Assembly (NCBI GenBank): GCA_964447335.1
Contig: CAYUSA010000001.1
Coordinates: forward strand, 63,091 to 127,090
From: an uncultured Actinomycetes bacterium
Lineage (GTDB): Bacteria; Actinomycetota; UBA4738; HRBIN12
DNA: 64,000 nt
Reading direction: 5' to 3'
The stretch's first letter is position 1. Every line of letters begins with the position of its first letter. The notes beneath the pieces are model-generated. The model was not told the DNA's origin, searched no databases, and worked only from the letters and a program-made list of their open reading frames with translations. The translations under genes were made by a program, and so were the position numbers. Shown here one piece after another: positions 1,411 to 26,753 of the stretch.

Positions 1411-2212
1411 GACCCCCAGACCTCGCGCGCTCACGATCGCCGGATCGGACTCCGGCGGTGGGGCCGGCATCCAGGCCGACCTGAAGACCTTCAGCGCGCT
1501 CGGTGTGTACGGGATGACGGCGATCACGGCGGTCACCGTGCAGAACACGCTCGGCGTGAGCGGATACCAGGCGCTCTCGCCGGCGACGGTGGGAGACCAG
1601 ATCCGAGCCGTCGCCACGGACATCGGCGTGGACGCCGCGAAGACCGGCATGCTCGCCTCGCGCGAGATCGTCGACGCGGTCGCCGATGCGGTCGCGAAGA
1701 CCGAGATCCCGAACCTCGTGGTGGACCCCGTGTTCATGTCCAAGCACGGTCACGCGCTCCTGGCCGAGGACGCGGTGGACGCGCTCCGCACCCGGATCTT
1801 GCCCCTGTCGATGCTCGTCACGCCCAACCTGCCCGAGGCCGCGGGACTCGTCGGCTTCCCCGTCCGCTCGACCGACGACATGAGCCGCGCGGCCGAGGCG
1901 ATCCTGGGGTTCGGACCTCGAGCGGTGCTGGTCAAGGGGGGCCATCTCGAGGGCTCGGACCGCGCGGACGACCTCTTCTTCGACGGGGACCGGGTGGTGT
2001 GGGTCCAGGGTGTGCGCCTCGACACGCCGCACACGCACGGAACGGGGTGCACGCTCTCGGCGGCGATCGCGGCGCACCTGGCTCGCGGCGACGAGCTACT
2101 CGAGGCGGTCCGGGCCGGCAAGGCGTTCGTGACCGAGGCGATCCGTCACGCGCTCGCGATCGGGCATGGGATCGGCCCCGTCGACCAGCTCTGGTCCATC
2201 CCCGCCCGCTGA
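1400..2212 (+). CDS. thiD: hydroxymethylpyrimidine/phosphomethylpyrimidine kinase
   Basis: ATG at 1400 overlaps the thiL stop (ATGCCCGCTGA). Motifs [20 protein letters not shown] and KGGHLEG...[14 protein letters not shown] are typical of ThiD/PdxK. The ORF-track start at 1178 is an upstream in-frame artefact. Confidence 0.85.
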
Positions 2213-2296
2213 CGCCTCCACACCCGATCGCGCGCCTTGCCGCGTTGCCCCATCGCGCATGCGGGTTTCCCGCAACCGTGAGGGTGGTTCTCCCCG

Positions 2297-4000
2297 ATGG
2301 GCCGGCGTGCACGCGTGCCGAAGGTACGAACGACGATGGTGCAGGAGGGTGTGCTCGAGCTTCCCCGGGTCGACGCGCGTCGGCGTTGGCCGGCCTGGCT
2401 GTGGTTCCTCTCCGGGTCGCTTGCGGTGGCGGGCGTCCTGCCCCTGGTGCCGTGGGCCGCACGGGTGCGGCTGTACGAGGTCGTCTCCGTTGCCGGCGTC
2501 GTCGCCGCGTTCGTCGGCATCCACCGCGCGCGGCCCGAGCGGCTGCTCGCGTGGCAGGCGCTGGCCGTCGGGACCGCCTGCATCTTCGCCGGGGACGTGA
2601 TCTTCGACCTGTATCCAGCGCTCCGGCAGATCCTGGCTCCGTTCCCCTCCGCTGCCGACATCCTGTGGCTCCCCGGCTACGCGATGCTGGCCGTCGGTGG
2701 ATGGATGCTGTTCCAGATCTCGGGACCAGGCGGACGGCGAGTCGGGTGGATCGACGTCTCCATCGCCGGCGTCGCCCTGGTCGCGGCCCTGTGGGTGTTC
2801 TTCGTGGATCCGCAGCTGCGAGTGGGTCGGTTCGACGAGCTGGACATCGTGATCGCTGCGTATCCCCTGGTCGACATCTTCCTGATCTCGCTCGCGTGCC
2901 GATTCCTGTTCGTCGCCCGCCCGTGGGAGGTCGGCCTGCGGCTGTTCACGGTCGGCCTGGGCGGGCTGCTGTTCGCCGACCTGTGGTACTCGACCGCGCT
3001 CGCGAGGGGCATCACCCAGCCGGCCTGGCCGGTCAGCGTGGGGTGGCTGCTGTGGCCGATCGCCCTTGGGACGGTTGCGCTGCATCCATCCATGAAGACC
3101 CTTGGCTCCGACCTCACCGCCGAGCGAACTGGCTCGGTCCCCAGGTCACGGGTGTGGATGCTGGCCGTACTGGGGCTCGTGCCGGCGCTCGCGTGGGTGC
3201 AGGCCGAGCTCCTGGGGGTTCCGGTGGACGGCGATATGGTGCTGCTCCAGGGCATCGTGTCCGCCCTCATGCTGTTCCGCGTGGGTGGCCTTCTCCGCGA
3301 GGTCGCGGCGCACCGCGCTCGGTTGGCGGCTCGAGAGGAGGAGCGCGCGCGGCTGCTCGAGCGCCTGCACGCCGTCGCCGAGGAGGAGCGCGTGGAGCTC
3401 TCGCGGGAGTTGCACGACGGTCCGATCCAGCACCTCGCGGGGATCGAGCTCGGGCTCGAGCGAGTGCAGATGCGTCTGGCGGCAGGCGACGTCGAGCGGG
3501 CGGCCGCCATCGCCGGCCAGTTGCAGGCGCAGCTGCGCGAGGAGGTCATCGGGCTGCGGCGGCTCATGGCCGACCTGCGCCCGCCGATCCTCACCGAGCG
3601 CGGGCTCGCGGCGGCACTCAAGGATCACATCGACGCGCTCGGTCGCCGGACGGACCTTCGTGTGGCGATGCAGGCCACACTCGACCAGCGGCTGGAGCCG
3701 GACGCCGAGGCCGTCCTGTTCCGGGTCGCGCAGGAGAGCCTGTCCAACGTCGTCCGGCATGCCCGAGCGAACCACGTGTGGGTCTGGGTCCAACGCCTGG
3801 ACGGCCAGGTCGAGCTCACCGTGCGTGACGACGGGTTGGGATTCGAGCCCGAGACGGTCGCCGAGCGGACCGATCGGCTCGGCCTGGTCTTCATGAGTGA
3901 GCGCCTCGCGATGGTCGGAGGCACGCTCGAGGTGCACTCGCGGCCGGGGTCCGGCACGGTCGTGCGCGCACGACTGCCCGTCGGAACGGAGGCGGCGTGA
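2297..4000 (+). CDS. membrane sensor histidine kinase, NarL-partner type (HisKA_3 + HATPase_c)
   Basis: Polytopic N-terminal membrane domain, then the dimerisation/His box ELHDGPIQHLAGIELGLE and a C-terminal ATPase domain (RDDGLGFEPE...MSERLAMVGGTLEV). An alternative start is the Met near 2336. Confidence 0.75.
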   Translation: MGRRARVPKVRTTMVQEGVLELPRVDARRRWPAWLWFLSGSLAVAGVLPLVPWAARVRLYEVVSVAGVVAAFVGIHRARPERLLAWQALAVGTACIFAGDVIFDLYPALRQILAPFPSAADILWLPGYAMLAVGGWMLFQISGPGGRRVGWIDVSIAGVALVAALWVFFVDPQLRVGRFDELDIVIAAYPLVDIFLISLACRFLFVARPWEVGLRLFTVGLGGLLFADLWYSTALARGITQPAWPVSVGWLLWPIALGTVALHPSMKTLGSDLTAERTGSVPRSRVWMLAVLGLVPALAWVQAELLGVPVDGDMVLLQGIVSALMLFRVGGLLREVAAHRARLAAREEERARLLERLHAVAEEERVELSRELHDGPIQHLAGIELGLERVQMRLAAGDVERAAAIAGQLQAQLREEVIGLRRLMADLRPPILTERGLAAALKDHIDALGRRTDLRVAMQATLDQRLEPDAEAVLFRVAQESLSNVVRHARANHVWVWVQRLDGQVELTVRDDGLGFEPETVAERTDRLGLVFMSERLAMVGGTLEVHSRPGSGTVVRARLPVGTEAA

Positions 4001-4440
4001 GCGAGGGGCGGGTGCTCGTCGCCGACGACGACGGCCTGGTGCGCGAGGTCGTGCGCGAGCTGCTCGAGGACTATGGGTTCGACATCGTCGGCGAGGCCGA
4101 GGACGGCTCCGTCGCGGTCCGCCTCGCCGGCGAGCTGCTGCCCGACGTCGTGCTGATGGACATGCGGATGCCCGTGATGGACGGCATCGAGGCGACGGCC
4201 GAGATCCGCGGCCGGCAGCCGAACGTCCAGGTCGTGATGCTCTCGGCCTACGACGACGAGGGGTTCAAGCAGGACGCCGAGCAGGCCGGGGCCCTGTGCT
4301 ACCTCGTGAAGGGCATGGGCGGCGGGCTGATCCGGGACGTGCTCCGCTCGGCCGTGGACACGGCGCGAGGGCTGGCGCTGCGAGGGATGGCCGCGGAGGC
4401 GAGCGGGCCTAGCGGGCGCGCTGGACCTTGCCGGCCTTGA
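3997..4440 (+). CDS. single-domain response regulator (receiver only, no output domain)
   Basis: Receiver-domain motifs [25 protein letters not shown] and YLVKG. The 147-aa protein ends without a LuxR helix-turn-helix. The start overlaps the kinase stop, and the 3' end overlaps convergent rpmB by 32 bp. Confidence 0.7.
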
Positions 4441-4600
4441 TGCAGCTCGTGCACGCGTGAACGCGCTTCGGGGTTCCGTTCACCACGGCGCGGACCCGCT
4501 GGATGTTGGGGTTCCACCGGCGCGGGCTCCGGCGGTGGGAGTGGGAGACCTGCATGCCGAAGAACGGCTTCTTCCCGCAGATGTCGCAGACGGCTGCCAT
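4409..4600 (-). CDS. rpmB: 50S ribosomal protein L28
   Basis: [63 protein letters not shown]. The ORF-track N-terminal extension is rejected and the start is placed at the ATG at 4598-4600. Confidence 0.93.
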
Positions 4601-4748
4601 GGCCGAGCAAGGGTAGCAGACGACCGGAGGCGGCCAACCCACGATCCTGAGCTCGGGGCTGGGCCCGCGTGCGCGCTCGGTCGGCCCGGCGTACGTACCG
4701 CTCGACGCCTGAGCGGAACGCGGATGACCCTCGTGGTAGAACCGACCC

Positions 4749-6983
4749 ATGCTTCCACCATGTTCTTCGGAGCGCCCGGTGGCGCTGACGCTCGCCTCGC
4801 CGGTCGAGGCGATCGATCGGCAGCTCGCGAACCGCCGCACCGGGTTCCGGACCAAGGGAGACCCGGCGCACGAGGTCCTCTCAGCCTCGCTCGGCATCCA
4901 GATCGTGGGGCAGCTGTTGCACCACTACCCGCGCCGGTACATCGACCGCTCGCAGGTGGCCAGGATCCGCGACCTCAAGATCGGGCAGCAGGCGACCGTG
5001 ATCGCGACGGTGAAGCGCGCGGTCAAGCGCCAGACCCGGCGTCACCAGACGATGGTCACCGTCACGCTGTACGACGGCTCCGGGTACCTGGATCTCACGT
5101 TCTTCAACCAGCCCTGGATGGCCTCGATGTACAAGGAGGGACACGAGGTCGCGGTCTCGGGCGTCGTGCAGCTCTACAAGGGTCGGCTCCAGCTCGCGAA
5201 CCAGGAGGTCGAGCTCCTCAAGGGCGACGAGGCCGACCTGGTCCACACCGGTCGCATCACGCCGGTCCACCGCGCGACCGATGGCATCACGACGCGCACG
5301 ATCCGGGAGCTGGTGCATCGCGCGCTCGAGCAGCTCCGCACGATCGCCGACCCGATGCCGCCCGACGTCGTCGCGGCCGAGCGGCTCTCCGCGTTCGACG
5401 GCGCGATCCGCCAGGTCCACTTCCCCGCCTCGCAGGAGGAGCGCCGGGCGGCCGAGGAGCGCCTGAAGTTCGACGAGCTGTTCACGCTCGAGCTCGGCGT
5501 GGCGTTCCGCAAGCACCGCGTCGAGGCCGCCCAGACCGGCGTCCGGCACGAGCCGGACGGGGCCCTCGTCCGGCGCCTGCTCGCGACGCTGCCGTTCGAG
5601 CCGACCGGCGCGCAGACGCGCGCGATGGGCGAGATCGACACGGCGATGGCGCGCCCCCGCCCGATGAACTTGCTCCTGCAGGGCGACGTCGGCTCGGGCA
5701 AGACGCTCGTCGCGCTCCACGCCGCGCTCGTCGCGATCCAGTCCGGGCACCAGGCCGCGATCATGGCCCCGACCGAGGTCCTCGCGGGGCAGCACTTCCG
5801 GTCGATGGCGGCGCTGCTCGGCCCCTTCGGCGCGATCCCGTACCTCGAGCTCACGGGCGCGCCGGATGACGGGCCGCAGAGCTCACTGCTCGAAGGACCC
5901 GAGGACGTACCCGCCGAGGCCGGGGTCACGTACGCGCTCCTCACCGCCGGGGTCACCGGCAAGGACCGGGTGCGGATCCTCGAGGGCATCGCGGGCGGCG
6001 ACGTCGACCTGGTCGTGGGGACCCACGCGCTCGTCCAGGAAGGGGTCGCGTTCGCCGACCTCTCGCTCGCGGTGATCGACGAGCAACACCGCTTCGGCGT
6101 GCACCAGCGCATGGCACTGAAGGGGAAAGGCGGCTCGCCGGACGTCCTCATCATGACGGCGACGCCGATCCCGAGGACCCTCGCGCTCACGTACTACGGC
6201 GATCTCGACGTCGTCGTCCTCGACGAGATGCCGAAGGGCCGGCAGCCGGTCGAGACGAAGATCGCGCGCACCAAGCAGGAACGCGACGCCGCCTACGCGC
6301 TCATACGCCGCGAGGTCGAGGCCGGACGGCAGGCGTTCGTGGTCTGCGCCGCGATCGACGAGGCGAACAAGAGCGAGGTCCGCGCCGCCGAGGCGGAGGC
6401 GAAGCGGCTTGCCGAGGACGTCTTCCCCGACCTCTCGCTCCACCTGTTACACGGCCGCATGCGTCCCGCCGAGAAGGAGCGCGTGATGGAGGCGTTCCGC
6501 TCGGGCGAGCACCACCTGCTGATCTCGACCACCGTGATCGAGGTCGGTGTCGACGTGCCGAACGCGACGGTCATGCTCGTCGAGAACGCCGAGCGGTTCG
6601 GACTCGCGCAGCTCCACCAGCTCCGGGGCCGGATCGGCCGCGGCGAGCACGCCTCGTCCTGCGTGCTCTTCGACGAGTCGAAGCAGGACAACGAGGAGGC
6701 CCGCGCCCGCCTGGACGCGATGGTCCGCACGACCGACGGCTTCGAGCTCGCCGACGAGGACCTGCGGCTCAGAGGTGAGGGCACCCTCTTCGACGTGAAA
6801 CAGTCCGGCATGCCCGACCTGAAGCTTGCGCGCCTGGCCGAGGACCTCGAGCTCGTCAAGCGCGCCCGCGCCCGTGCGTTCGCCGTGATCGACGAAGACC
6901 CGTCCCTCGAACGGCACCCCGGCCTGCTCCTCGAGCTCCGCTCGCGCTTCGAGCGCTCGATCGAGTGGCTTTTCCACTCCTGA
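4749..6983 (+). CDS. recG: ATP-dependent DNA helicase RecG
   Basis: 744 aa with a wedge-domain N-terminus, helicase motifs GDVGSGKT and [10 protein letters not shown], and the C-terminal [12 protein letters not shown]. Confidence 0.92.
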
Positions 6984-7013: not shown

Positions 7014-10000
7014 ATGCGCGTAGATGAGTCCGTGGAAGTGCAACACGTGACGCCCGACCCTGGCAACTCGGCCCCCGAGCCGGGGGCCGGAGCCGGGGGG
7101 TCCTCAGCGCCGCCGGCGCGTCCACCCCGCCCCGGCGTCGCGCGCGTCTGCGCGGCCGTCGCCGCCCTCCTCGGCGGCCTCGTCCTCGTCGGCTGGGCCC
7201 TCGGCATCGAGGTGCTGAGGAGCCCGCTCCCCGGCGAGGTCTCGATGAAGCCCAACACGGCCCTGTCGTTCCTGCTGCTCGGACCTGCGCTCCTCCTGCT
7301 CCTCGTCGGGAGGGCGGAACGCCGCCTTCGCGCCGCCGGAAGGCTCCTGGCCCTTGCTCCCGTGATCGTCTCCCTGCTCACGCTGGCGGAGTACGCGTTC
7401 GACCGTGACCTCGGGATCGACGAGCTGCTGTTCCGCGACACGACGGCCGCGGTTGCCACCGTCGTGCCGGGCAGGCCGGCGCCGTTGACGGCCGTCTGTT
7501 TCCTGCTGCTCGGGTCGGCGCTCCTCGTGCTCGATCGTCGACGCGGCGCAGGTCTCGCGCAGGTGCTCGGATCGGTCGCGGGCTTCGTGGGGCTCCTCGG
7601 GCTCCTGCCGTACCTCTACGGCCTGCGGTCGTCCTCGGGGCTCATCGCGCGCGAGACCCAGATGGCGATGCACACGGCGGTGGCGATGGTCCTCCTCGGA
7701 GTGGGCGTGGTGCTGGCTCGTCCGGATCGGGGGCCGATGGCCTTCGTCGGCAGCGACACGATCGGGGGGAGCCTTGCCCGGCGCCTGCTGCCCGTTGCGG
7801 TTGGCCTGCCCGTCGCCGCCGGCTGGCTGGCCGTGGGGGGCCAGCGCTTGGGGCTGTACGACCCCGGCTTCCGCGTCTCGGTCGTGGCGACCGCGAGCGC
7901 TGCCGTCCTCGCGGTGCTGACGTGGGTGGGGACTCGGTCCGCCCACCGCTCGGACCTCGCACGCAGGCAGGCGGAGCGAACGCGCGTGGACCTGTTCCGC
8001 GCCAATCCCAGCGCCGGGTGGGTCACCCGCATGTCCGATGGTCTGTTCGTCGACGTCAACGAGGCGTTCGCCCAGACCTTCGGCCGGGCCAGGGAAGACC
8101 TGATCGGCCGGACTTCCGTCGAGCTCAACATCTGGGCGGATCTGGGGGAGCGCGAGGCCGTGATGCGGATGCTTCGCGAGCAAGGGACGGTCGAGGGTAT
8201 GGAAGCGCACCTCCGCGACACCAACGGACGTTCGTTCCCCGCCCTGTTCGCGGCGAGGGTCGAGGAGATCGACGGCGAGCCGCACGTCGTGGGCTCGCTC
8301 CTGGACATATCCGAGCGGAGGCGCGCGGATGAGGAACGGGAACGGTCCGCGAGGCGTCTCGAGGGGCTGAACGCGATCGGTCGCGACATCCTGGGCGCCC
8401 GATCGACGGAAGAAGTGACTCGCGTGGGCCTCGCGCGCCTGCGCGAGCTGGTCCCCTGCATGCGGGCCTCCCTCGCCCGGTTCGACCCGGCGACGCAAGA
8501 GCTGGTGATCCTGGCTCTGGACGCGGAGGGGGAGACCGAGGTCGGGATCGGCGCGCGCTTCCCCCTCACCGCGGCCGGCCCAACGGACAGGCTCCGGCGC
8601 GGTGAGATCAACCGGATCCCCGACACGCTGGAGGTGCGGGACCCGTCACCGTCGGTGCGTCGATTGATCGAGGAGGGTGTACGGATGTACGCGAACGTAC
8701 CGATGGTGGCCGCGGGGGAGCTGATCGGCACCATCAACCTGTCGTCCGCAACGCCGGGCGGATTCGCAGAGGAGGAGCTCGATGCCACCCGGGAGGTGGC
8801 CGACCTCCTCACCGTGGCGCTGGTGGAGTCGGACCTCCGGGACGAGCTGCGACGGCACGCGGAGGACCTGGAGCAGCGGGTGGCCGAGCGGACCGCGGCT
8901 CTGTCCGAGAGCGAGACCCGCTGCCGGTCGCTCCTGGCCAACGCCCCCGACGGGGTCCTACTCGTCGACCCGGCGGGGGTGATCGCGTTGGCGAACGACA
9001 CGGCCGCGACGCTCTTCGGCTACGAGGTGATCGAGCTTCACGGGCTGCCCGTGGAGGTGCTCGTGCCCGAGTCGCTCTGGGCGACCCACGGGAGGCACCG
9101 GGAGGAGTACTCCACCGAGCACGTCGCTCGACCCATGGGAACGGGACTTGCGCTCCGCGGACGGCGCAAGGACGGGACGGAGTTCCCCGCCGACATCTCC
9201 CTGAACTCGATCCTCCCCGACAACGCCCACGGCGGGCCGAGCGCGATCGCATTCGTTCGGGACGTCACGGAGCGGGAGCGGATCGAGGAGGCGATCGTCG
9301 CGGCCAAGGAGGAGGCCGAACGGGCGAACCGGGCCAAGGACGAGTTCCTCTCGCGGATGAGCCACGAGCTCCGCACGCCGTTGAACGCGGTCCTCGGGTT
9401 CGCCCAGGTGCTCGAGATGGAGGATCTACCGCCCGAGCAGCACGACAGCGTCCGGCAGATCCGCATGGGAGGGCAACACCTGCTCGAGCTGATCAACGAG
9501 GTCCTGGACATCTCGCGGGTCGCGACCGGGGATCTCTCGCTCTCGCTCGAGCCGGTCGGGGTGAGCGAGACGCTCCGCGACGTCGTCGACCTCGCCCAGC
9601 CGCTCGCCGCCGACCGGGGCATCACGCTGCGGCTGGAGGATGCCAGCGGGCTCCACGTCCTGGCCGACCGCCAGCGGCTCAAGCAGGTCCTGTTCAATCT
9701 GCTCTCCAACGCGATCAAGTACAACCGCGAGGGGGGCAGTGTGGACGTCTCCTGGGCCGAGGCGCCGGAGGGGAAGCTCCGGATCCACGTCACCGACACG
9801 GGTCCCGGGATCCCCCCCGAGCGGATGGGGCAGGTGTTCGTCTCCTTCGACCGTCTGGGGGCCGAGGCGGGCGGCGTCGAGGGGACCGGCCTCGGGCTGT
9901 CCTTGTCGAAGGCCCTGGCCGAGGGGATGGGGGGAACGCTCGAGGTGAAGAGCGAGGTGGGGGCCGGCTCGGTCTTCACGGTCGAGCTGCCGCTCGCCGA

Positions 10001-10445
10001 GCCGCCCGACCAGCGCTACGAGCGGGAGCCCCGTGAGCACGACCGGATGGAGGAGCGCGGGCAGGCCCGGACCGTGCTGTACGTGGAGGACGACCTGTCC
10101 AACCTCCGGCTGATCGAACGGATCCTCGACCGACGGCCGGGGGTCCGCCTGCTGACCGCGATGCAGGGGCGCCTCGGGATCGAGCTCGCCCGAAAGCACA
10201 AGCCGGACCTCATCCTGCTCGACCTGCACCTGCCGGACATCGGCGGGGAGGAAGCGCTCCGCTGGCTCCGGGGAGATCCCGCCACGGCGGGCATCCCCGT
10301 CGTCGTGATCTCGGCGGATGCCACCCAAGCCCAGATCGAGACGCTGCTCGCCGCGGGGGCGCGTGAGTTCGTGACCAAGCCGATCGACGTGAAGCGGTTC
10401 CTGCAGGTCGTGGACGACGTGTTGCGAGGGCCCGAGGATGGGTGA
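7014..10445 (+). CDS. hybrid sensor histidine kinase (membrane domain, PAS/GAF/PAS, HisKA, HATPase_c, REC)
   Basis: 1143 aa. The HisKA motif is MSHELRTPLNAVLGFAQVLE; the ATPase G-boxes are DTGPGIPPE and GTGLGLSLSKALAEG; the C-terminal receiver carries TVLYVEDD, LILLDLHLPD and VTKPID. The true start may be downstream of 7014. Confidence 0.8.
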   Translation: MRVDESVEVQHVTPDPGNSAPEPGAGAGGSSAPPARPPRPGVARVCAAVAALLGGLVLVGWALGIEVLRSPLPGEVSMKPNTALSFLLLGPALLLLLVGRAERRLRAAGRLLALAPVIVSLLTLAEYAFDRDLGIDELLFRDTTAAVATVVPGRPAPLTAVCFLLLGSALLVLDRRRGAGLAQVLGSVAGFVGLLGLLPYLYGLRSSSGLIARETQMAMHTAVAMVLLGVGVVLARPDRGPMAFVGSDTIGGSLARRLLPVAVGLPVAAGWLAVGGQRLGLYDPGFRVSVVATASAAVLAVLTWVGTRSAHRSDLARRQAERTRVDLFRANPSAGWVTRMSDGLFVDVNEAFAQTFGRAREDLIGRTSVELNIWADLGEREAVMRMLREQGTVEGMEAHLRDTNGRSFPALFAARVEEIDGEPHVVGSLLDISERRRADEERERSARRLEGLNAIGRDILGARSTEEVTRVGLARLRELVPCMRASLARFDPATQELVILALDAEGETEVGIGARFPLTAAGPTDRLRRGEINRIPDTLEVRDPSPSVRRLIEEGVRMYANVPMVAAGELIGTINLSSATPGGFAEEELDATREVADLLTVALVESDLRDELRRHAEDLEQRVAERTAALSESETRCRSLLANAPDGVLLVDPAGVIALANDTAATLFGYEVIELHGLPVEVLVPESLWATHGRHREEYSTEHVARPMGTGLALRGRRKDGTEFPADISLNSILPDNAHGGPSAIAFVRDVTERERIEEAIVAAKEEAERANRAKDEFLSRMSHELRTPLNAVLGFAQVLEMEDLPPEQHDSVRQIRMGGQHLLELINEVLDISRVATGDLSLSLEPVGVSETLRDVVDLAQPLAADRGITLRLEDASGLHVLADRQRLKQVLFNLLSNAIKYNREGGSVDVSWAEAPEGKLRIHVTDTGPGIPPERMGQVFVSFDRLGAEAGGVEGTGLGLSLSKALAEGMGGTLEVKSEVGAGSVFTVELPLAEPPDQRYEREPREHDRMEERGQARTVLYVEDDLSNLRLIERILDRRPGVRLLTAMQGRLGIELARKHKPDLILLDLHLPDIGGEEALRWLRGDPATAGIPVVVISADATQAQIETLLAAGAREFVTKPIDVKRFLQVVDDVLRGPEDG

Positions 10446-12780
10446 GGCGGCAGAGCGACCGTCGACCGCGAGGGATCGCCTTTGGCGGTGGTACCTGGGA
10501 TCGGTCTTGTTCTTGGCGGTGCTCTTCGTCCCGCTGCGGGGATCCGACCGGGCGGTCGCCATCCTCAGCGTCGGAGGGATCACCTCGATGCTCGTGGCCA
10601 TCCCGGTGGGGCTCCGTCTCCACCGTCCGGCCGACGTGCGGCCCTGGTACGTGATCCTCGCCGGGATGGCGGGGTCCGTCGTCACGAACGCGATCTCGTA
10701 CTCGGCGAACACCCGGGCCGCCACGCCGGCGTACCCCTCCGTCGTGGACGTCCTCTACGTCGGAGCGTACGTCGTCGTCGTCGCGGGGTTCGCGCTGTTC
10801 GTTCGCGCGAAGATCGCACGGGGTGACCGGGACGGCTTCATCGACGCTCTGATCGTGACCGCGGGGCTGGGGGTGCTGTCCTTCGTCCTCCTGATCGATC
10901 CGTACCTGGACGACGCGAACCTTTCCGCTGTGGCCCGCGCGACGTCCATGTCCCACCCGCTCCTCGAGCTCGCGCTCCTGGGTATCGCCGCACGCCTCGT
11001 ATTCCTGCCGGGGAGGAGGCCCGTCGCGCTCTGGTTCGTCTGCCTGTACGCCGCCCTGTCGTTCGCCGGAGACGCCGTCTACGGCGTCCAGGTCCGGGCC
11101 GAGACCTTCTCGTTCGAGAGCGGGGCCAACGCGCTCTGGATCGCCTCGTTCGCTTTCTTCGGCGCCGGTGCGCTCCACCCGTCGATGCGGGAGCTGACGG
11201 AGCGCCGCAGAGGAGCCGTGTCGGGGAACGGGACGGCCCGACTGGTGGCCTTGGGGGTCATGGCGATGCTGGGCCCCGCGACGTTGGCGATCGGCTGGGG
11301 CCATGCCTCTGGGCACTTCCGTCAGGTTGGCGCGATCTCTGCGGCCGTGGTCGCCCTGGTCCTCGGCCGCATGTGGATGCTGACCGTGGGCCTCGAGACG
11401 CACCGCAGGGCCCAGCAGGCGCTCAGAGAGAGCGAGGAGCGGTCCCGGCGCCTGTCGGACGCGACCTTCGAGGGGGTCATCGTGATCGCGGACGGGAGGA
11501 TCGTCGAGGCGAACCGGGCGTTCCTCGAGATGTTGGGGCTGGAAGCCGAGCAGGTGGTGGGCCTGGCTCCGGAGGAGCTGATAGCGCCCGAGTCCGTCCC
11601 GACGATCTACGAGCACCTGCGCTCCGGGACCGAGGAGCCGTGGGAGATGGAGGTCGTTCTCCGTAACGACCGCCGGATGTGGCACGAGTCGAGGGCGAGC
11701 ACCATCCCCTATGGCGGGTCGGAGGCGCGGGTGATCTCGATCCGCGACATCACGGAGCGGAGGCGCGTGGACGCCGCGCTCCGGGAGAGCGAGCAGCGGT
11801 TCCGGACCTTGTTCGAGACGGCGCTCGACGCGATCGTGGTCATCGATGCTGAAAGCACGATCGTTCAGGCGAACCCGGCCGCTTCCGAGCTCGTCGGGGT
11901 CTCGACCGACCGGATGGTCGGACGCGGCTTCGGGGGGCTCATCGCCCCCGGCTTCGACGCCGACGCCGCACGGGAGACCGCCCACGGGATCGAGGGGTTC
12001 CGCGTGGACATCCCGATCGTGGCGGCCGATGGGACCGAGCGAAAGGTGGAGGCCACCGCCGGCCTGCTCCCCGACGGGAACCTGGTGATCGTCGCCAGGG
12101 ACGTCTCCGAGCGCCGGCGTGCCGAGGAGGAGCTCCGCCGGGCGGAGGACCGATACCGCTCGCTGGTGGAGCGGCTCCCCGGCGCCGTGTACGTGGATGT
12201 TCCCGAGGGCGGCTTGGCCGGGTACACGTCGGTCTTCATCAGCCCCCAGGCCGAGACCCTTCACGGCTACGCGCCGGAGGAGTTCCTGGCCGATCCCGAT
12301 CTCTGGCCCCGGATCCTTCATCCCGAGGACCGCGAGCGGGCCCTGGAGGCCGACGCTCGTCACTGGAAGACCGGCGAGCCCCTGGACCAGGAGTTCCGCG
12401 TGATCGCCAAGGACGGCCGGGTGGTGTGGGTCCGGGACCGGGCCGTCCTGTTGCGCGACGACCAGGGCCGGGCCCTGATGTCCCAGGGGTTCCTGACGGA
12501 CATGACGGACCAGAAGGAGGCGGAGACCCTGCGCGACGCCAGGGACGAGGCCGAGCGCGACAACCGGGTGAGAAGCGAGTTCCTGTCGCGCATGAGTCAC
12601 GAGCTCCGGACGCCGCTGAACGCCATCCTCGGGTTCGGCCAGGTGCTGGAATCATCGTCCCTCGCGCCGGAGGACCGCGACAGCGTGGAGCGGATCATGG
12701 AGGGCGGCCGCCGGCTGCTCGAGCTGGTCGACGACCTGCTCGAGATCTCGCGGACCGGCGGCGGCGCGGGGCGGGGCTAG
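10438..12780 (+). CDS. PAS-rich sensor kinase paralog lacking the ATPase domain (truncated)
   Basis: Membrane domain, three to four PAS repeats, and a HisKA box MSHELRTPLNAILGFGQVLE. It ends 20 aa after the dimerisation helix (LLELVDDLLEISRTGGGAGRG*) with no HATPase_c. The start overlaps the previous gene's stop. Confidence 0.7.
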   Translation: MGEAAERPSTARDRLWRWYLGSVLFLAVLFVPLRGSDRAVAILSVGGITSMLVAIPVGLRLHRPADVRPWYVILAGMAGSVVTNAISYSANTRAATPAYPSVVDVLYVGAYVVVVAGFALFVRAKIARGDRDGFIDALIVTAGLGVLSFVLLIDPYLDDANLSAVARATSMSHPLLELALLGIAARLVFLPGRRPVALWFVCLYAALSFAGDAVYGVQVRAETFSFESGANALWIASFAFFGAGALHPSMRELTERRRGAVSGNGTARLVALGVMAMLGPATLAIGWGHASGHFRQVGAISAAVVALVLGRMWMLTVGLETHRRAQQALRESEERSRRLSDATFEGVIVIADGRIVEANRAFLEMLGLEAEQVVGLAPEELIAPESVPTIYEHLRSGTEEPWEMEVVLRNDRRMWHESRASTIPYGGSEARVISIRDITERRRVDAALRESEQRFRTLFETALDAIVVIDAESTIVQANPAASELVGVSTDRMVGRGFGGLIAPGFDADAARETAHGIEGFRVDIPIVAADGTERKVEATAGLLPDGNLVIVARDVSERRRAEEELRRAEDRYRSLVERLPGAVYVDVPEGGLAGYTSVFISPQAETLHGYAPEEFLADPDLWPRILHPEDRERALEADARHWKTGEPLDQEFRVIAKDGRVVWVRDRAVLLRDDQGRALMSQGFLTDMTDQKEAETLRDARDEAERDNRVRSEFLSRMSHELRTPLNAILGFGQVLESSSLAPEDRDSVERIMEGGRRLLELVDDLLEISRTGGGAGRG

Positions 12781-12811
12781 CACGGCCTGTACGGACGGCG
12801 GGACGCCCGGC

Positions 12812-12883
12812 GCCTACCTCACGAAGCCGTTCGACGTGAAGCGATCCCTGGGCGTCGTCGGAGGTTCCCTCGGGGGCGCGTAG
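12812..12883 (+). pseudogene. receiver-domain C-terminal remnant (AYLTKPFDVKRSLGVVGGSLGGA*)
   Basis: A short peptide in a different frame, right after the truncated kinase. It matches the receiver tail of the 7014..10445 gene (FVTKPIDVKRFLQVV). Confidence 0.5.
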
Positions 12884-12893
12884 GGCCGAGTCC

Positions 12894-14096
12894 TCACCCG
12901 GCGCCCGGCGCTGAGCCCTCGGCGGGAGCCACGAGCCCACCGCCCGAGGTCGCGGTCGCCGGGACCCAGCACTCGACCGTCGTACCCTTCCCGGGCGCCG
13001 TGTCGACGCGCCACCAGCCCCCTGCGAGCTCGGCGCGTTCTCGCATCGCCTTGAGCCCGAGGTGGTGCGAGGTGAGCGACGGGGGTCGCTCGGGGTCGAA
13101 GCCCCTGCCGTCGTCTCGGACCGTGAGGCGGAATCCGTGGTCCGCCTCCTCCACCTCCACGGTGACGCTGGTGGCGCGTGCGTGCTTCGCCACGTTCGCG
13201 AGCGCCTCCTGCGCGATCCGGTACAAGAGCGTGCGCACCCCCAGCTCCGGTTCCTCCGTGATCCGCCGCTCGACGCGCCAGGTCCACCCGGTGTCGGGGG
13301 GCGTGCGCTCGAGGTACTCGGAGAGCGCCTCCGCCAGGCCACCCGAGTCGAGCGCGGAGGGGTGCAGCTCGAAGAGCATGCGTCGGAGCCGGTCCATGGC
13401 TTGATGCACGATCGCCTCGGTCGTCGCGAGCTCCGCGGCCTCCTCGGTCCCCTCGAGCTTGTCGCGGAGCATCTGGAGGCGCAGCACGGCCGCGACCATG
13501 GCCTGCACCGGGTCGTCGTGGATGTTGTACGCGATGCGCCGCTGCTCGTCCTCCTGCGCCGCCACGAGGCGCGCGAGGAGCAGCCGGCGCGTGTCCTGGG
13601 ACGCCCGGAGGTCCCGCAGGGCATCCGAGAGCTCGGCGGTCCGCTCCTCGACCAGCTGCTCCAGGTGCTCGGCGTGCAAGCGAACCTGGAGATGCAGGTC
13701 CCGCGTATGGAGCAGGTTCCGGATCCGAAGGACGGCCTCGACGGCATCGAACGGCTTGGTCAGGAAATCCGAGGCCCCAGCCGCGAGGGCCTTCCGCTTC
13801 GCCGCCTCCGTCACGTCCGCCGTCAGGACCAGCACCGGGAGGAAGTCCTCGGCCGGGACGACCTGGTGGAGGCCCTCGAGGATCTGGTGCCCGCTGACGT
13901 GGGGCATCAGCAGGTCGAGGAGGACGATGTCCGGCTGCCACTCGCGCACGAGCGGGATCGCCTCGCGCGCGTCGGTCGTCCCGTGCACGTGCGGGAACCC
14001 GGCTCCGTACAGCAATCGCTCGAGCAGGCGGACGTTCGGTTCCTCGTCGTCCACGATCAAGATCCGGTGGTCCGTCGGCGCGGTGGTCTCCGTCAT
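12894..14096 (-). CDS. hybrid response-regulator/histidine kinase (REC, HisKA_3, HATPase_c)
   Basis: N-terminal receiver (ILIVDDEE, DIVLLDLLMP, VLVLTAD, FLTKPFD), a coiled coil, the His box RIAYNIHDDPVQ, and an ATPase domain (ANVAKHA...TVRDDGRGFDP...GLKAMRERAELAGG). Confidence 0.8.
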   Translation of the reverse strand: MTETTAPTDHRILIVDDEEPNVRLLERLLYGAGFPHVHGTTDAREAIPLVREWQPDIVLLDLLMPHVSGHQILEGLHQVVPAEDFLPVLVLTADVTEAAKRKALAAGASDFLTKPFDAVEAVLRIRNLLHTRDLHLQVRLHAEHLEQLVEERTAELSDALRDLRASQDTRRLLLARLVAAQEDEQRRIAYNIHDDPVQAMVAAVLRLQMLRDKLEGTEEAAELATTEAIVHQAMDRLRRMLFELHPSALDSGGLAEALSEYLERTPPDTGWTWRVERRITEEPELGVRTLLYRIAQEALANVAKHARATSVTVEVEEADHGFRLTVRDDGRGFDPERPPSLTSHHLGLKAMRERAELAGGWWRVDTAPGKGTTVECWVPATATSGGGLVAPAEGSAPGAG

Positions 14097-14716
14097 GGTC
14101 GGTCCTCCTTCATCCGGCGTCGGCGAGGGTCTGGTCGAGGAGCTTGAGGAACCGCGCGACGTCGAGCGGTTTCGTCATGCATCCGCGAGCGCCCGCGGCG
14201 ACCAGCCGCTCCAGCTTGCTCCGGGTCGTGTCCGCGGTGAGCACGACCATCGAGGATGTGAGCGGTCTCCGGTTCCTCCAGCAGCTTCGAGAGCACGAGC
14301 TCTCCCGACATGTCGGGCAGGCGCAGGTCCAGGAGCACGAGGTCGGGGCGGGTCGTGCGCAGGTGTCGATGCCCAGCGCGCCCGAGGTGACGGCGAGCAG
14401 GTGGATGTGTGGGCGCCGCGTGAGGACCTTCTCGAGCAGCTTGACGTTCGTCGGGTTGTCCTCGATGTAGACGATGGTGGCCGGCCCGTCTCGGGAGCGC
14501 CTGGAACGCCTTGAGCGCCGGTGTCCTCTTGGGGGCCTCCAGGAGGTCGATGCGGAAGCTCGTCCCCCGGCCGGGCACGCTGCTGACGCGGATCGTCCCA
14601 CCTGTGGCCTCGACGAGACGCTTCGTGAGCGCGAGGCCGAGGCCAGCGCCGCGAACCGGGCCCGTCTCGGCGCCGAGCCGCTCGAAGGGGGAGACCTGAG
14701 CGACAGGTCCCGCCAT
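14093..14716 (-). pseudogene. frameshifted 3' fragment of a hybrid kinase (HATPase_c C-terminus plus REC)
   Basis: Homologous segments are split across three minus-strand frames: FERLGAETGPVRGAGLGLALTKRLVEATGGTIRVSS, TIVYIEDNPTNVKLLEKVL, PDLVLLDLRLPDMSGE and VVLTADTT...CMTKPLDVARFLKLL. There are no upstream HisKA or sensor parts. Confidence 0.65.
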
Positions 14717-14916
14717 GCGGAACGCAACTGCACACGCCCTCCTCTCTCTTCGCGGGCGCGGGATGTCGTTCCCGAGGACGCAACCCTAGCGCTTGGTTCC
14801 CCGGCTGCGAATAAGCCGAAGGTCACAGGTCTGCCGTCCCCTTTCCGGGTGATGCTCGATCCCGGGCGGGCCCCCACCGGCGTGAGCGACCCCGGGCTCC
14901 CGAGACGGCGCGGGCC

Positions 14917-16314
14917 GTGGGTGATAATGACCGTCCGGGACGGTCTCTCCAGGAGGGTCGGTTGAGGGACACGAGGCCGCACGAGCCTCGGGGAGCCATT
15001 CGTGGTCACGCCGGTAGCGGCGGTCGTGCTCTCCGGGCGGCGATCGTCTACGCGGTGCTGGGGGTCCTGTGGGTCCTGTTCTCCGACCGGCTCCTCGTGT
15101 GGCTGGTTCGCGACCCGCAGACGCGGGATGTGGTCCAGACCGCGAAGGGGTGGCTGTTCGTCTCGGTGTCTGCCGTGCTCGTGTACGGGTTCGTCCGGCT
15201 CGCCGAGCGGGCCGAGCGCCGTGCCGCTCGGGCCGAGGACTCCCTCCGGGCGAGCCAGGAGTGGCTTCGGAGCATCGCGGAGAACGTGACCGACATGATC
15301 TTCCGGTACCGGGTGGCGGAGCCGCAGGGGTACGAGTACGTGAGTCCCTCCTCGACCGAGATCACGGGTTTCACGCCGGAGGAGCACTACGCGGATCCCC
15401 GTCTGCCTTTCCAGATCGTCCACGGTGACGATCGGAGCGCGCTCGAGCGGCTGCTGTGCGGCGAGTCACGCGGCGAGCGCGTGCGCTTCCAGCGCAAGGA
15501 CGGCAGCACGATCTCGACCGAGTTCCGCGTGCGTGCGATCCTCGACGAGACGGGTCGGCCGGTCGCGGTCGAGGGGATCATTCGCGACGTCACGGCGCTC
15601 GCGCTCACCGAGCAGGAGCTGGAGGAGCGCGTTCTCGACTTCGGGAAGCTGGCCGAGGAACGGCTGGCGCTCATGCGCAAGCTCGTGCACGCGCAGGAGG
15701 AGGAGCGCCGGCGCATCGCGCTCGAGATCCACGACGGGATCGGCCAGGTGCTCACCTCGATCTCGCTCTACGCCTCGGATCTGCCGGAGGTCGTCCCCGA
15801 GGAGCACCGCGCCCGCGCCGAGAGGGTCCGCGAGCTCATCCAGCGTGCGATCGCCGACAGCCGGATGCTCGTCTGGAGCCTGCGTCCGCCGGACCTCGAG
15901 CGCCTGGGCCTGGTCCCGGCGATCCAGCACCTCGTCGAGAACCTCCTCGACCATGCGACGGAGCACCTCGACCATGCGACGGAGCACATCGATGTGCTGG
16001 ACGAGACCAAGGGCCGGCGCCTGACACCCGAGATCGAGACCGTGGTCTTCCGCATCGTGCAGGAGGCACTGAACAACGCGACGAAGTACGCGCACGCATC
16101 GTCCATCTCGGTCGTGGTGGCCATCCGGGACGGCGTGCTCTCCGCGGTGGTCGAGGACGACGGTCGTGGTTTCGACGTCGAGACCGTCGACACGTTCGGT
16201 GGCGTCGGTATGGGCGGGATGCGCGAGCGTGCGGACTTCGTGGGCGGTAGGTTGGTCGTCGAGTCGGCGAAGGACGTCGGCACCGTGGTCCGGCTGGAGG
16301 TCCCGATCCCGTGA
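14917..16314 (+). CDS. PAS sensor histidine kinase (HisKA_3 + HATPase_c)
   Basis: Two transmembrane helices, a PAS domain, the His box RRRIALEIHDGIGQ, and an ATPase domain (QEALNNATKYAHAS...VEDDGRGFD...GMGGMRERA). It contains an in-frame 21-bp tandem duplication (LDHATEH twice). The true start is probably downstream of 14917. Confidence 0.8.
   Translation: MGDNDRPGRSLQEGRLRDTRPHEPRGAIRGHAGSGGRALRAAIVYAVLGVLWVLFSDRLLVWLVRDPQTRDVVQTAKGWLFVSVSAVLVYGFVRLAERAERRAARAEDSLRASQEWLRSIAENVTDMIFRYRVAEPQGYEYVSPSSTEITGFTPEEHYADPRLPFQIVHGDDRSALERLLCGESRGERVRFQRKDGSTISTEFRVRAILDETGRPVAVEGIIRDVTALALTEQELEERVLDFGKLAEERLALMRKLVHAQEEERRRIALEIHDGIGQVLTSISLYASDLPEVVPEEHRARAERVRELIQRAIADSRMLVWSLRPPDLERLGLVPAIQHLVENLLDHATEHLDHATEHIDVLDETKGRRLTPEIETVVFRIVQEALNNATKYAHASSISVVVAIRDGVLSAVVEDDGRGFDVETVDTFGGVGMGGMRERADFVGGRLVVESAKDVGTVVRLEVPIP
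15947..15988 (+). repeat. perfect 21-bp tandem duplication (ctcgaccatgcgacggagcac twice) inside the kinase gene
   Basis: Direct reading of the sequence; it encodes LDHATEH twice. Confidence 0.85.
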
Positions 16315-16952
16315 GCGAGCGGCCCATCCAGGTGATGTTGATGGACGACCACAACGTCGTCCGCGAGGGCCTCCGGGCCCTCCTCGAGCGCCAGACCGAC
16401 ATCCGCGTCGTCGCGGAGGCCGGCACCGTCGCCGAGGCCGAGGCGGCCGAGGTCGAGCCCGACGTGGTCGTCGCCGACCTGGTGCTGCCTGACGAACGCG
16501 GCGCCGAGGTCGTCCGGCGCCTGCGCGAGCGATTCCCCCACTCGGCGATCCTGGTCCTCACGATGGTGGACAACCCGACCGACGTGCAGCTGTGCCTGGC
16601 GGCGGGTGCGAAGGGGTACCTGATGAAGGAGGCCGCGGGCGCCGAGCTGACGGACGCCGTGCGGGCGGTCGCTCAGGGACGCGAGTACCTGCAGCCGGCG
16701 CTCGGTGCGGTGCTCGCGCGGTGGCGCGAGGCACCCGGGAAGATCAGTGCGAAGGCGTCGGTCGACCTCGGCGAGCGCGAGCGCGAGGTGCTGCGCCTGA
16801 TCGCCCTCGGTCACACGAACGCCGAGATCGCGCGCCTACTGTTCCTGTCGGTCCGCACCGTCGAGAACCACCGCGCCAGCCTGATGCGCAAGCTCGGCGT
16901 GAAGACCAGGGCGGACCTGGTCCGGCACGCGACCCAGTCCGGTCTGGTCTGA
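16311..16952 (+). CDS. LuxR/NarL-family response regulator
   Basis: Receiver domain (VMLMDDH, VVVADLVLPD, ILVLTMVD, YLMK) plus a C-terminal LuxR helix-turn-helix (EREVLRLIALGHTNAEIARLLFLSVRTVENHRASLMRKL). The start overlaps the kinase stop. Confidence 0.88.
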   Translation: MSERPIQVMLMDDHNVVREGLRALLERQTDIRVVAEAGTVAEAEAAEVEPDVVVADLVLPDERGAEVVRRLRERFPHSAILVLTMVDNPTDVQLCLAAGAKGYLMKEAAGAELTDAVRAVAQGREYLQPALGAVLARWREAPGKISAKASVDLGEREREVLRLIALGHTNAEIARLLFLSVRTVENHRASLMRKLGVKTRADLVRHATQSGLV

Positions 16953-26360: not shown

Positions 26361-26753
26361 ATGGCCAAAGCGGACATCTTGATCGTCGAGGACCATCCGA
26401 CGATGCGAGAGGCGATGCGTCTCGTGCTCGAGCACGAGGGGTTCGTGATCCGCGAAGCGGCCGACGGCCCGACCGCCCTCGCGATGGTGCGCGAGCAGCC
26501 GCCGGACCTGATGTTCCTCGACCTCAACATCCCCGGCGCGAGCGGCGCCGACGTCCTGCAGGAGCTGAAGTCCGACCCGATCACGGCGGGCGTCCGCGTG
26601 ATCATCGTGACGGCGACCGGCGAGGAGGGGCGGGACTTCGTCATCGCGCTCGGCGCCGATGAGTACTTCACGAAACCGTTCTCACCGACGGCGCTCCTCC
26701 GGACCGTGGAGCGCGTGCTCGACCTCGGTGGGGCGGCTTCCCCGACGACGTGA
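26361..26753 (+). CDS. single-domain (CheY-like) response regulator
   Basis: ILIVEDH, LMFLDLNIPG, IIVTATG and YFTKPF motifs; 130 aa. It sits inside a longer out-of-frame ORF-track entry. Confidence 0.75.
   Translation: MAKADILIVEDHPTMREAMRLVLEHEGFVIREAADGPTALAMVREQPPDLMFLDLNIPGASGADVLQELKSDPITAGVRVIIVTATGEEGRDFVIALGADEYFTKPFSPTALLRTVERVLDLGGAASPTT

Follow-up and report, generated by a model that had tools for sequence, protein, structure and literature searches.

A HisKA_3 histidine kinase with an N-terminal receiver, probably stranded in a broken signaling module

What is a histidine kinase that carries a receiver domain in the position of a sensor, and which proteins might it exchange phosphate with? 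The question is raised by a gene on the minus strand, positions 12894..14096, of a 64-kb stretch of DNA that we refer to as "the window". A sequence-only reading of the window had proposed that the 400-aa product of this gene, the target, has an unusual architecture and may be gated by phosphorylation from another kinase. We consider it probable that the target is a soluble Rec-controlled histidine kinase (Rec-HK) of the HisKA_3 (NarX/DesK) type, controlled through its receiver, that belongs in the middle of a cascade and is stranded in this genome. Here, we describe the gene, its linker, its neighbors and those of its relatives, and weigh the competing explanations.

A receiver in the position of the sensor

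The target gene is complete, encoding a receiver (REC), a signaling helix (S-helix), a DHp domain, and a catalytic (CA) domain. It begins with ATG, and its GC3 of 0.93 is similar to that of adjacent genes. Direct inspection of the sequence places a Shine-Dalgarno motif (AGGAGGA, 14103..14109, minus strand) 6 nt 5′ of the ATG at 14096; a promoter and terminator scan of 12600–15100 found nothing. A Pfam search bears out the proposed REC-HisKA_3-HATPase order, with all three domains scoring above the gathering cut-offs: Response_reg at residues 12–124 (13725..14063; E 1.4e-23), HisKA_3 at residues 184–249 (13350..13547; E 3.3e-8, 34.4 bits vs a cut-off of 24), and HATPase_c at residues 287–381 (12954..13238; E 2.3e-17), all on the minus strand. 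These were the only domains found by Pfam, with no further sensor or input domain, and neither HWE_HK nor HisKA_2 was among the five Pfam matches at E up to 0.01. Because the receiver precedes the DHp domain, the order is not that of a classical hybrid kinase (HK-REC).

The residues expected of each domain are in place. The receiver retains D16, D17, the phospho-acceptor D61 (codon 13914–13916), T92, F111, and K114, the last four being invariant in an alignment of 56 homologues; the claim that an intact receiver, with its Asp, Thr, and Lys, replaces the sensor is therefore correct. In the kinase core, the phospho-accepting H193 (codon 13518–13520) opens the sequence HDDPVQ (H193-D194-D-P-V-Q198), which contains a DxxxQ phosphatase motif (PMC3510030) whose Q198 is invariant in the family. 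The N box (N301) and G1 box (D328-G330-G332, i.e., D328xGxG332) of the HATPase_c domain are intact, and their columns are invariant. All of these receiver and kinase residues are invariant or ≥90% conserved among the 56 homologues. The locus is reproduced at 100% identity over 4–12 kb in three SRA assemblies, which come from different runs but possibly from one study and hence are not fully independent; this reproduction indicates that the target is not a chance match and was not fused during assembly.

The architecture is, however, not unusual. It occurs in 120 of the 120 best database clusters, which are 44–73% identical to the target. With clusters at 50% identity, it is found in at least 43 of the top 150. 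Moreover, the Rec-HK class, also known as hybrid response regulators, is named, common, and structurally and mechanistically solved; in addition to LvrB, the studied cases include ExsG, CheS3, and PhcR. Because the design is both widespread and already named, the target is an ordinary further member of this class and, as one more Rec-HK, carries little weight by itself. Our literature searches found no studied Rec-HK of the HisKA_3 type, and no biochemistry for any, nothing under "REC-HisKA_3" style architecture, and no paper linking HisKA_3, receiver input, and EAL.

Linker, predicted structure, and selection

Between the receiver and the DHp domain lies an S-helix linker (residues 125–183; 13548..13724, minus strand), identified from an AlphaFold model, residue spacing, and the ERT motif as defined previously (PMC1592074). 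The linker includes LEQLVEERTAEL, with the ERT signature at residues 151–153, and the signature LExxVxERTxEL is conserved across the homologue alignment. The spacing from K114 to H193 is 79 aa in 52 of 56 homologues; the outlying values are 72 and 86, meaning that the variants differ from 79 by exactly 7. In the AlphaFold model, the target consists of the receiver, one long helix, a DHp hairpin, and the CA domain, with REC alpha5 running unbroken through the S-helix into DHp alpha1. A single helix spans residues 118–194 with a mean pLDDT of 86.9, and pLDDT by block is mostly 81–97; the model is of a monomer and says nothing about dimer states. When the model was compared to the PDB with Foldseek, the best match was full-length LvrB (8VC9; E 6e-16, ~400 columns), at a TM-score of only 0.30 and 16% identity, and the catalytic domain matched those of VraS and DesK. 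Together, the fixed 79-residue spacing, the ERT helix, and the unbroken modeled helix fit a kinase that is controlled, like LvrB, through phosphorylation of its receiver.

The gene is still under purifying selection. Relative to the 73% identical ortholog at locus L084, dN/dS is 0.27, a value that averages over the full time since the two copies split; the corresponding value for recG is 0.21. Within the target, dN/dS is lowest in the linker (0.155). Of 91 conserved positions, the target departs from the family consensus at 5, a count inside the 0–8 seen across the family. Two of its substitutions affect conserved positions of the H box: R185Q, at a 100%-conserved position, is unique among the 56 homologues, and D191N is rare. 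These two changes could alter or weaken kinase function.

Conserved modules in relatives and a broken one in the window

In relatives of the target, the Rec-HK gene typically sits in a module consisting of a kinase or hybrid kinase, the Rec-HK, and a REC-EAL regulator. A REC-EAL gene is directly downstream in 11 of 16 loci (L005, L006, L085, L088, L089, L091, L092, L172, L173, L174, and L175), often overlapping the Rec-HK gene by 1–4 nt. These REC-EAL proteins have an intact EAL motif and a NarL-like receiver; L174 and L175 add a REC-GerE gene beside REC-EAL. Eight of the 16 loci (L004, L005, L006, L084, L090, L091, L172, and L173) have a kinase or hybrid kinase gene immediately upstream in the same orientation, and this gene often overlaps the Rec-HK gene. 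REC-Hpt genes are nearby in 2 of the 16 loci. A metagenome scan with the family alignment yielded mostly partial or distant matches and added one clean context, L092.

In the window, this module is broken: the donor gene has decayed into a pseudogene, the neighboring convergent kinase lacks its ATPase domain, and REC-EAL is missing. The upstream neighbor (14113..14698, minus strand) is the remnant of an LvrA-like hybrid kinase gene, recognized by three-frame translation, tblastn, and nucleotide alignment. It keeps the C-terminal third of HATPase_c and a REC domain but lacks the 5′ portion of the original gene. When it is aligned with its intact ortholog at L084, −1/+1 indels are seen to disrupt the REC of the remnant around the segment with the phospho-acceptor, and tblastn matches to the remnant are split across two frames. 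Sequencing errors are an unlikely source of these frameshifts since the assemblies from different runs, though possibly from one study, agree at 100%.

On the other side of the target is a convergent kinase gene (10438..12780, plus strand) whose Pfam domains are TM-PAS x3-HisKA and whose product ends just past the DHp domain, without an ATPase domain; the gene call is identical in independent assemblies. A receiver-domain tail (YLTKPFDVKRSLGVV...) left from this kinase persists at 12815..12883 (plus strand), as seen by tblastn and in the sequence itself, with its own TAG stop at 12881–12883 and 26 nt that exactly match the end of the L084 receiver. The kinase has thus lost HATPase_c and most of its REC by an internal deletion that the tail marks. 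We also considered that the target segment, together with the HATPase/REC remnant, might be an inverted piece of 10438–12780. We rejected this idea because the plus strand still carries the separate receiver tail and its stop codon; moreover, the same convergent arrangement at L084 counts against an inversion, and no significant inverted repeats flank the minus-strand segment.

Which proteins in the window could serve as partners? The sequence-only reading had named the neighboring hybrid kinases as candidate donors. The two flanking genes are defective, but a third, at 7014..10445 (plus strand; PAS-GAF-PAS-HisKA-HATPase_c-REC by Pfam), is intact; no other complete hybrid kinase lies close to the target. 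The receivers of the two proteins share 36% identity, and this hybrid kinase is the most plausible local phosphodonor and may be the present one. The target receiver is nearer to hybrid-kinase receivers (36%) than to receivers of the NarL-like type, the usual partners of HisKA_3 cores (22–32%); comparisons of receiver subtype and of DHp domains give only weak hints of partnership, the pairs being too few for covariation. The output-less receivers at 3997 and 26361, also put forward as partners, make weak candidates. The former is NarL-like and single-domain (3997–4440) and its translation is coupled to that of a HisKA_3 kinase of its own (2297–4000), whose DHp differs from that of the target; the two form a self-contained pair (2297..4440, plus strand) that is conserved in L084. 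The latter (26361–26753) is not NarL-like, unlike the usual partners of the family. A divergent PAS-HisKA_3-HATPase_c kinase (14917–16314) and a NarL-type REC-GerE regulator (16311–16952) form a further self-contained pair by Pfam (14917..16952, plus strand). No partner with a NarL-type receiver adjoins the target in the window, the 64 kb contain no REC-EAL gene, and the window proteins scanned, a set that includes only part of the ORFs at 31–64 kb, yielded no Hpt domain.

Proposed control, its alternatives, and known systems

We propose that the target acts as a dimer in which D61 of the N-terminal receiver would be phosphorylated by another kinase. Phosphorylation would re-pack the two receivers of the dimer, and the signal would pass along the rigid ~60-residue ERT signaling helix, from receiver alpha5 to the first DHp helix. 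The DHp/CA core would then toggle between a kinase state, with autophosphorylation of H193, and a phosphatase state involving the DxxxQ motif. By analogy with LvrB, receiver phosphorylation would switch the kinase on, although the sign of control is not predictable for the target, as ExsG is inhibited and the LvrB switch residues are absent here. The idea that another kinase gates the target is sound by comparison with LvrA→LvrB, CheA3→CheS3, and BphP1→ExsG, and with the upstream kinase in half of the loci. The family would form the middle tier of a cascade that leads from a sensor or hybrid kinase through the Rec-HK to a NarL-like REC-EAL, a c-di-GMP phosphodiesterase, with a REC-LuxR regulator sometimes following REC-EAL. 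The copy in this genome would be stranded, its acceptor being encoded elsewhere or re-assigned. This account draws on the architecture, its conservation, the heptad-quantized linker, the modeled helix, synteny, decay of the neighbors, and purifying selection; from these, we infer each step of phosphotransfer, whether control is positive or negative, and which proteins are the partners.

The most serious competitor concerns the sign. Phosphorylation of the receiver might turn the kinase off, as in ExsG, such that the target would run unless restrained by an upstream kinase. We regard this as unlikely but worth keeping in view. In ExsG, a REC-HWE kinase, phosphoramidate or BeFx lowered autophosphorylation in a D62-dependent manner (PMC3899027); CheA3 phosphorylation of REC1 in CheS3 derepresses cyst formation (PMC3868531); and the target has the canonical T92/F111 pair in place of the inverse switch residues of LvrB. 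However, ExsG is a hexameric HWE kinase for which no S-helix linker is described in the sections consulted, whereas the target carries a long, heptad-quantized ERT coiled coil of the kind that, in LvrB, forms upon phosphorylation and frees the CA domain. It is rather improbable that, in this genome, the target gene is a stranded relic that is decaying into a pseudogene and no longer takes part in signaling. Both flanking partner genes have decayed, REC-EAL is absent from the window, the upstream gene of the operon is gone, presumably together with the promoter, and R185Q and D191N alter the H box; yet the reading frame is unbroken and preceded by a strong ribosome-binding site, its GC3 is like that of its neighbors, the number of deviant positions is within the family range, and dN/dS is low, albeit averaged since the split from L084.

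Still less probable is that the receiver serves as an internal acceptor or phosphate sink for H193, making the target a self-limiting kinase or phosphate buffer, rather than as an external input. Intramolecular His-to-Asp transfer is documented for hybrid kinases such as CheA3, and the target gene has been conserved although the local donor gene is dead. By contrast, gene order in the family puts a kinase or hybrid kinase just ahead of the Rec-HK, the receiver resembles those of hybrid kinases more than NarL-like ones, and the AlphaFold model keeps D61 and H193 apart by a rigid ~77-residue helix. Lastly, the notion that assembly or gene calling wrongly joined two genes into an artificial fusion is refuted by the three identical assemblies, the 120 homologous clusters with the architecture in a single ORF, and the conserved, continuous helix of the linker; we found no evidence in its favor.

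Receiver control of a mid-cascade kinase thus remains our preferred explanation, and its wider meaning lies with the HisKA_3 branch, whose conserved neighborhood, with its REC-EAL genes, predicts a relay to c-di-GMP degradation. We suggest tentatively, with somewhat less than even confidence, that HisKA_3-type Rec-HKs of uncultivated Actinomycetota and Chloroflexota form a distinct, undescribed cascade ending in a NarL-like REC-EAL (or REC-HD-GYP-like) protein. If so, a two-tier kinase relay would be wired to c-di-GMP breakdown, and the window copy would be a natural "stranded" survivor of the loss of donor and acceptor genes, its survival implying re-wiring to other partners. The locus illustrates the decay of a cascade, with the middle kinase under selection and the donor and neighboring kinase genes deleted or frameshifted, and would be a small natural example of pathway re-wiring.

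Among the known systems that come closest is LvrB, the prototype of the class, for which both the mechanism and the heptad-multiple linker lengths of Rec-HKs have been described (PMC13269768). LvrB (378 aa vs 400 aa) has the same REC-DHp-CA order without another sensor, one long helix joining REC alpha5, the signaling helix, and DHp alpha1, and heptad-quantized linkers. It is phosphorylated by LvrA, a hybrid kinase encoded upstream in the same operon (PMC5863495), and relatives of the target likewise have a hybrid kinase gene directly upstream. Nevertheless, the structural alignment shows only 16% identity, and LvrB is missing among the 60 matches listed from a family-profile search of PDB sequences. 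The target DHp is of the HisKA_3 type with a DxxxQ motif, and 132 residues separate D61 from H193, vs 105 between D56 and H161 in LvrB. Activation of LvrB involves an "inverse Y-T switch" (S84/T86/Y87), whereas the target has T92-A-D-V and the canonical T92/F111 pair. The usual downstream partner also differs, being REC-EAL in the target family and the REC/anti-sigma protein LvrC for LvrB.

CheS3 of Rhodospirillum centenum has two receivers and a PAS domain ahead of its kinase and, unlike the target, is part of a Che-like cluster. As in the target, a receiver is N-terminal to the kinase; this receiver is phosphorylated by the hybrid kinase CheA3, and the kinase, in turn, phosphorylates a single-domain receiver (PMC3868531). 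ExsG of Sinorhizobium/Agrobacterium also joins an N-terminal receiver to a kinase core and is a regulator and kinase positioned between BphP1, upstream, and the single-domain receiver ExsF, downstream (PMC3899027); ExsG has a core of the HWE type, is hexameric, and is inhibited by receiver phosphorylation, whereas the target DHp is HisKA_3. The kinase core of the target, with its H box and DxxxQ motif, is homologous to those of NarX/NarQ, DesK, LiaS/VraS, UhpB, and MctS, with profile and structure matches to DesK and VraS, but these canonical HisKA_3 kinases have N-terminal membrane or ligand sensors. NCBIfam kinase equivalogs match the target only in residues 125–383, the kinase core and its helical lead-in, and the scores are far below the cut-offs for MctS, MadS, UhpB, LiaS, and NarQ/NarX (the best, MctS, at 125 bits vs 700), placing the target in no named equivalog. 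Finally, the target resembles the S-helix class of Anantharaman, Balaji, and Aravind (2006, PMC1592074), with ERT in the central heptad, between a receiver and a catalytic output; the receiver/S-helix/histidine kinase architecture is listed there, within a class that is a general structural module rather than a functional family.

Domain architecture and its distribution

The gene under study, on the minus strand at 12894..14096, encodes a 400-aa protein from an ATG start, with a strong Shine-Dalgarno sequence (AGGAGGA) 6 nt upstream and a third-position GC of 0.93, similar to that of the genes around it. Three Pfam domains score above their gathering cut-offs: Response_reg (residues 12–124, E = 1.4e-23), HisKA_3 (184–249, E = 3.3e-8) and HATPase_c (287–381, E = 2.3e-17); no fourth domain passes the Pfam cut-offs. 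NCBIfam equivalogs each cover one half of the protein, with every score far under the family cut-off: kinase models (MctS, MadS, UhpB, LiaS, NarQ/X) match residues 125–383, and response-regulator models match the N-terminal receiver. The sequence occurs exactly in a 128 kb NCBI contig and in three Logan assemblies, which are 100% identical to the window across 4–12 kb; an assembly artefact is excluded as the source of the fusion. Because the Pfam domains, the ORF features and the identical assemblies agree, the receiver–HisKA_3–HATPase_c order described in the sequence-only reading is borne out throughout, down to the intact Asp, Thr and Lys.

That reading had also called the architecture unusual, a view that, by its own yardstick of a fused design being widespread and already characterised, is refuted at the level of the class. 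In a set of 5.8 billion proteins, the best 120 clusters all have the same three domains at 44–73% identity, most with query coverage >90% and a size of ~380–430 aa; where named, they are called “response regulator” or “ATP-binding response regulator”. An exhaustive search of representatives clustered at 50% identity gave, within the top 150 clusters, at least 43 full-length, single-stretch matches (348–432 aa); many others have an additional domain between receiver and kinase. Named matches come from MAGs of Actinomycetota and Chloroflexota. [quoted passage not shown] We found no study of a HisKA_3-type Rec-HK in the literature.

Family anatomy and gene neighborhood

Among 56 aligned homologous HisKA_3-type Rec-HKs, residues that are conserved (invariant or ≥90%) comprise D16/D17, D61, T92, F111 (the aromatic switch position) and K114 in the receiver, H193, D194 and Q198 in the H-box, and N301 and D328xGxG332 in the ATPase domain. 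D194 and Q198 form the DxxxQ motif next to the His that has been described as the phosphatase motif of HisKA_3 kinases (PMC3510030). K114 and H193 stand 79 residues apart in 52 of the 56 sequences; in the other four the spacing is 72 or 86, i.e., exactly one heptad shorter or longer. Conserved in the linker is LExxVxERTxEL (residues 145–156), the “ERT” signature of the signalling helix, a module described as joining receivers to outputs that include histidine kinases (Anantharaman et al., PMC1592074). In the AlphaFold model of the target (mean pLDDT 86.9), residues 118 (in receiver alpha5) to 194 (in the His region) form a single helix without a break; the DHp hairpin comes next, then the CA domain. 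The target departs from the consensus at five of 91 highly conserved positions (family range, 0–8). Two of these departures lie in the H-box and are specific to its lineage: R185Q occurs in no other of the 56 members, all the rest keeping Arg there, and D191N lies two residues N-terminal to the phospho-His. Neither change is present in the 73% identical ortholog.

Gene context was compared across 16 independent loci with compact family members, picked by assembled stretch size or best match and blind to context. A REC-EAL gene, encoding a receiver with an EAL (c-di-GMP phosphodiesterase) domain, lies directly 3′ on the same strand in 11 of them (L005, L006, L085, L088, L089, L091, L092, L172, L173, L174 and L175), frequently overlapping the family gene by 1–4 nt. 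It is followed by a REC-GerE regulator in L174 and L175, and replaced by a REC-HD_5 (HD-GYP-like) gene in L004. A kinase or hybrid kinase lies directly 5′, again on the same strand, in 8 of the 16 (L004, L005, L006, L084, L090, L091, L172 and L173), with REC-Hpt genes close by in L004 and L090. HisKA_3 cores usually pair with NarL-type receivers. The REC-EAL proteins have an intact EAL motif, and their receivers, NarL-like and marked by DVxMPGGG, fit this customary pairing. With a kinase 5′ and REC-EAL 3′, the family appears, from synteny, to occupy the middle tier of a cascade that leads from kinase through Rec-HK to REC-EAL. No paper joining HisKA_3, receiver input and EAL was found; this family-level link is apparently undescribed and, with the stranded state of the target copy, is of chief interest.

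Decayed and already paired candidate partners in the window

The target copy is stranded: of the local partners proposed for it, most have decayed or belong to pairs of their own. Two-component genes have been inserted into a housekeeping backbone (thiL, rpmB-recG, rsmD, fpg, smc, ftsY, ffh, rimM) whose synteny we take to be Actinomycetota-like. The closest locus, L084, which carries the 73% ortholog, likely represents the ancestral state. There, the gene upstream of the Rec-HK ends in an intact receiver, its stop codon overlaps the Rec-HK start (ATGA), and a hybrid kinase converges on the Rec-HK 3′ end. In the window, this former operon partner, intact in L084, is a minus-strand hybrid kinase remnant (14113–14698): HATPase_c is cut down to its G2-box end, and the receiver, the only other part, lies in a different reading frame. 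Nucleotide alignment with L084 places two single-nucleotide indels, one deletion and one insertion, on either side of the phospho-acceptor segment. No DHp or N-terminal ATPase part is left up to the divergent gene at 14917.

The convergent kinase (TM-PAS x3-HisKA; 10438–12780, plus strand) stops directly after the DHp, without an ATPase domain. About 35 nt farther on, the last ~20 codons and stop of its receiver survive (12815–12883, plus), with 26 nt that match L084 exactly. The surviving tail indicates that roughly 1 kb, comprising HATPase_c and most of the receiver, was lost by internal deletion. A product with the DHp alone might retain a phosphotransferase or phosphatase role. The only intact hybrid kinase in the area lies at 7014–10445 (plus). 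L084 has one hybrid kinase (1571–5261), its receiver annotated as an ORF of its own (120 aa), versus the two tandem kinase genes at 7014–12883 of the window. Since the sensor half of the L084 kinase matches gene 7014–10445 (66–68% nt) and its HisKA region is closer to gene 10438–12780 (78% versus 69.5%), the sequences suggest that paralogous kinases recombined, or lost the DNA between them, in one lineage, that of the window or that of L084.

The HisKA_3 kinases at 2297–4000 and 14917–16314 (both plus) belong to their own translationally coupled pairs. The former has an ATGA overlap with a NarL-like single-domain receiver (3997–4440, plus), and the pair, inserted between thiamine genes and rpmB/recG, is kept in L084. 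The latter, divergent from the remnant, is coupled with a NarL-type regulator (16311–16952, plus); an in-frame 21-nt tandem duplication within this kinase gene (15945–15992, plus; 2.3 copies, 96% matches) yields LDHATEH-LDHATEH between DHp and ATPase domain. No EAL domain is encoded within the window. The receiver here that most resembles those of the family's REC-EAL proteins is 3997–4440 (82.8 bits); the regulator at 16311–16952 scores 70.7 bits and receiver 26361–26753 just 32.8 bits. Both single-domain receivers had been proposed as partners of the target. Receiver 26361–26753 is not of the NarL-like type usual for the family's partners, and receiver 3997–4440 is already paired with a kinase whose DHp is clearly unlike that of the target, which keeps the family-consensus residues. 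Receiver 26361–26753 (plus) lies between ftsY (ending at 26358) and ffh (starting at 26804), 3 nt past the ftsY stop, an odd site for a two-component gene. Elsewhere, an ECF-type sigma factor gene (29728–30183, plus) is overlapped by a 177-aa ORF (30180–30713) without a Pfam match, possibly its anti-sigma factor, and a DUF1003 gene adjoins them on the opposite strand.

Proposed mechanism and comparison with studied Rec-HKs

The target is probably a Rec-HK that works as a dimer. When another kinase phosphorylates D61, the paired receivers would rearrange, the ERT signalling helix would pass the change to the DHp/CA core, and the core would toggle between a kinase mode and a DxxxQ-dependent phosphatase mode, with phosphoryl on H193 passing to a NarL-like receiver. 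The relay-node function proposed earlier is reasonable and matches LvrB, ExsG and CheS3. As to neighboring hybrid kinases as donors, 7014–10445, which is intact and has a receiver 36% identical to that of the target, is the best local candidate; the flanking 14113–14698 and 10438–12780 have decayed.

The sign of control is uncertain. Activation by receiver phosphorylation is our choice by analogy with LvrB and from the long coiled-coil linker. That phosphorylation instead turns the kinase off is a doubtful but arguable reading: ExsG, a REC-HWE kinase placed between BphP1 and ExsF, is inhibited by receiver phosphorylation (PMC3899027), and the inverse-switch residues of LvrB are absent from the target. 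The ancestral donor gene (14113–14698) is dead in this genome; that the receiver is a self-phosphorylating sink, not an outside input, is nevertheless very improbable. It is also unlikely, if not to the same degree, that the target is a functionless relic here; dN/dS against the L084 ortholog, an average over the entire divergence of the two, is 0.27 for the whole gene and 0.155 for the linker, with 0.21 for recG from the same two loci.

For the dimeric Rec-HK that we favor, the closest structural counterpart is full-length LvrB of Leptospira (8VC9, “hybrid response regulator, phosphorylated REC form”), the top Foldseek match of the target model in the PDB (E = 6e-16, about 400 columns, 16% identity); the next matches include the kinase cores of VraS and DesK. 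In LvrB, alpha5, alphaS and DHp alpha1 are fused in one helix; when the receiver is phosphorylated, the alphaS helices pair as a coiled coil, which breaks symmetry and releases one CA domain for autophosphorylation (Nat Commun 2026, PMC13269768). Across the class, Rec-DHp linker lengths favor multiples of seven, and PhcR of Ralstonia is named as a further case (PMC13269768). LvrB is phosphorylated by the hybrid kinase LvrA, whose gene immediately precedes lvrB in their shared operon (PMC5863495), and the receiver of CheS3 by CheA3 (PMC3868531). While the target is without LvrB's inverse switch, both proteins have one continuous alpha5-to-DHp helix, in the target as modeled by AlphaFold.
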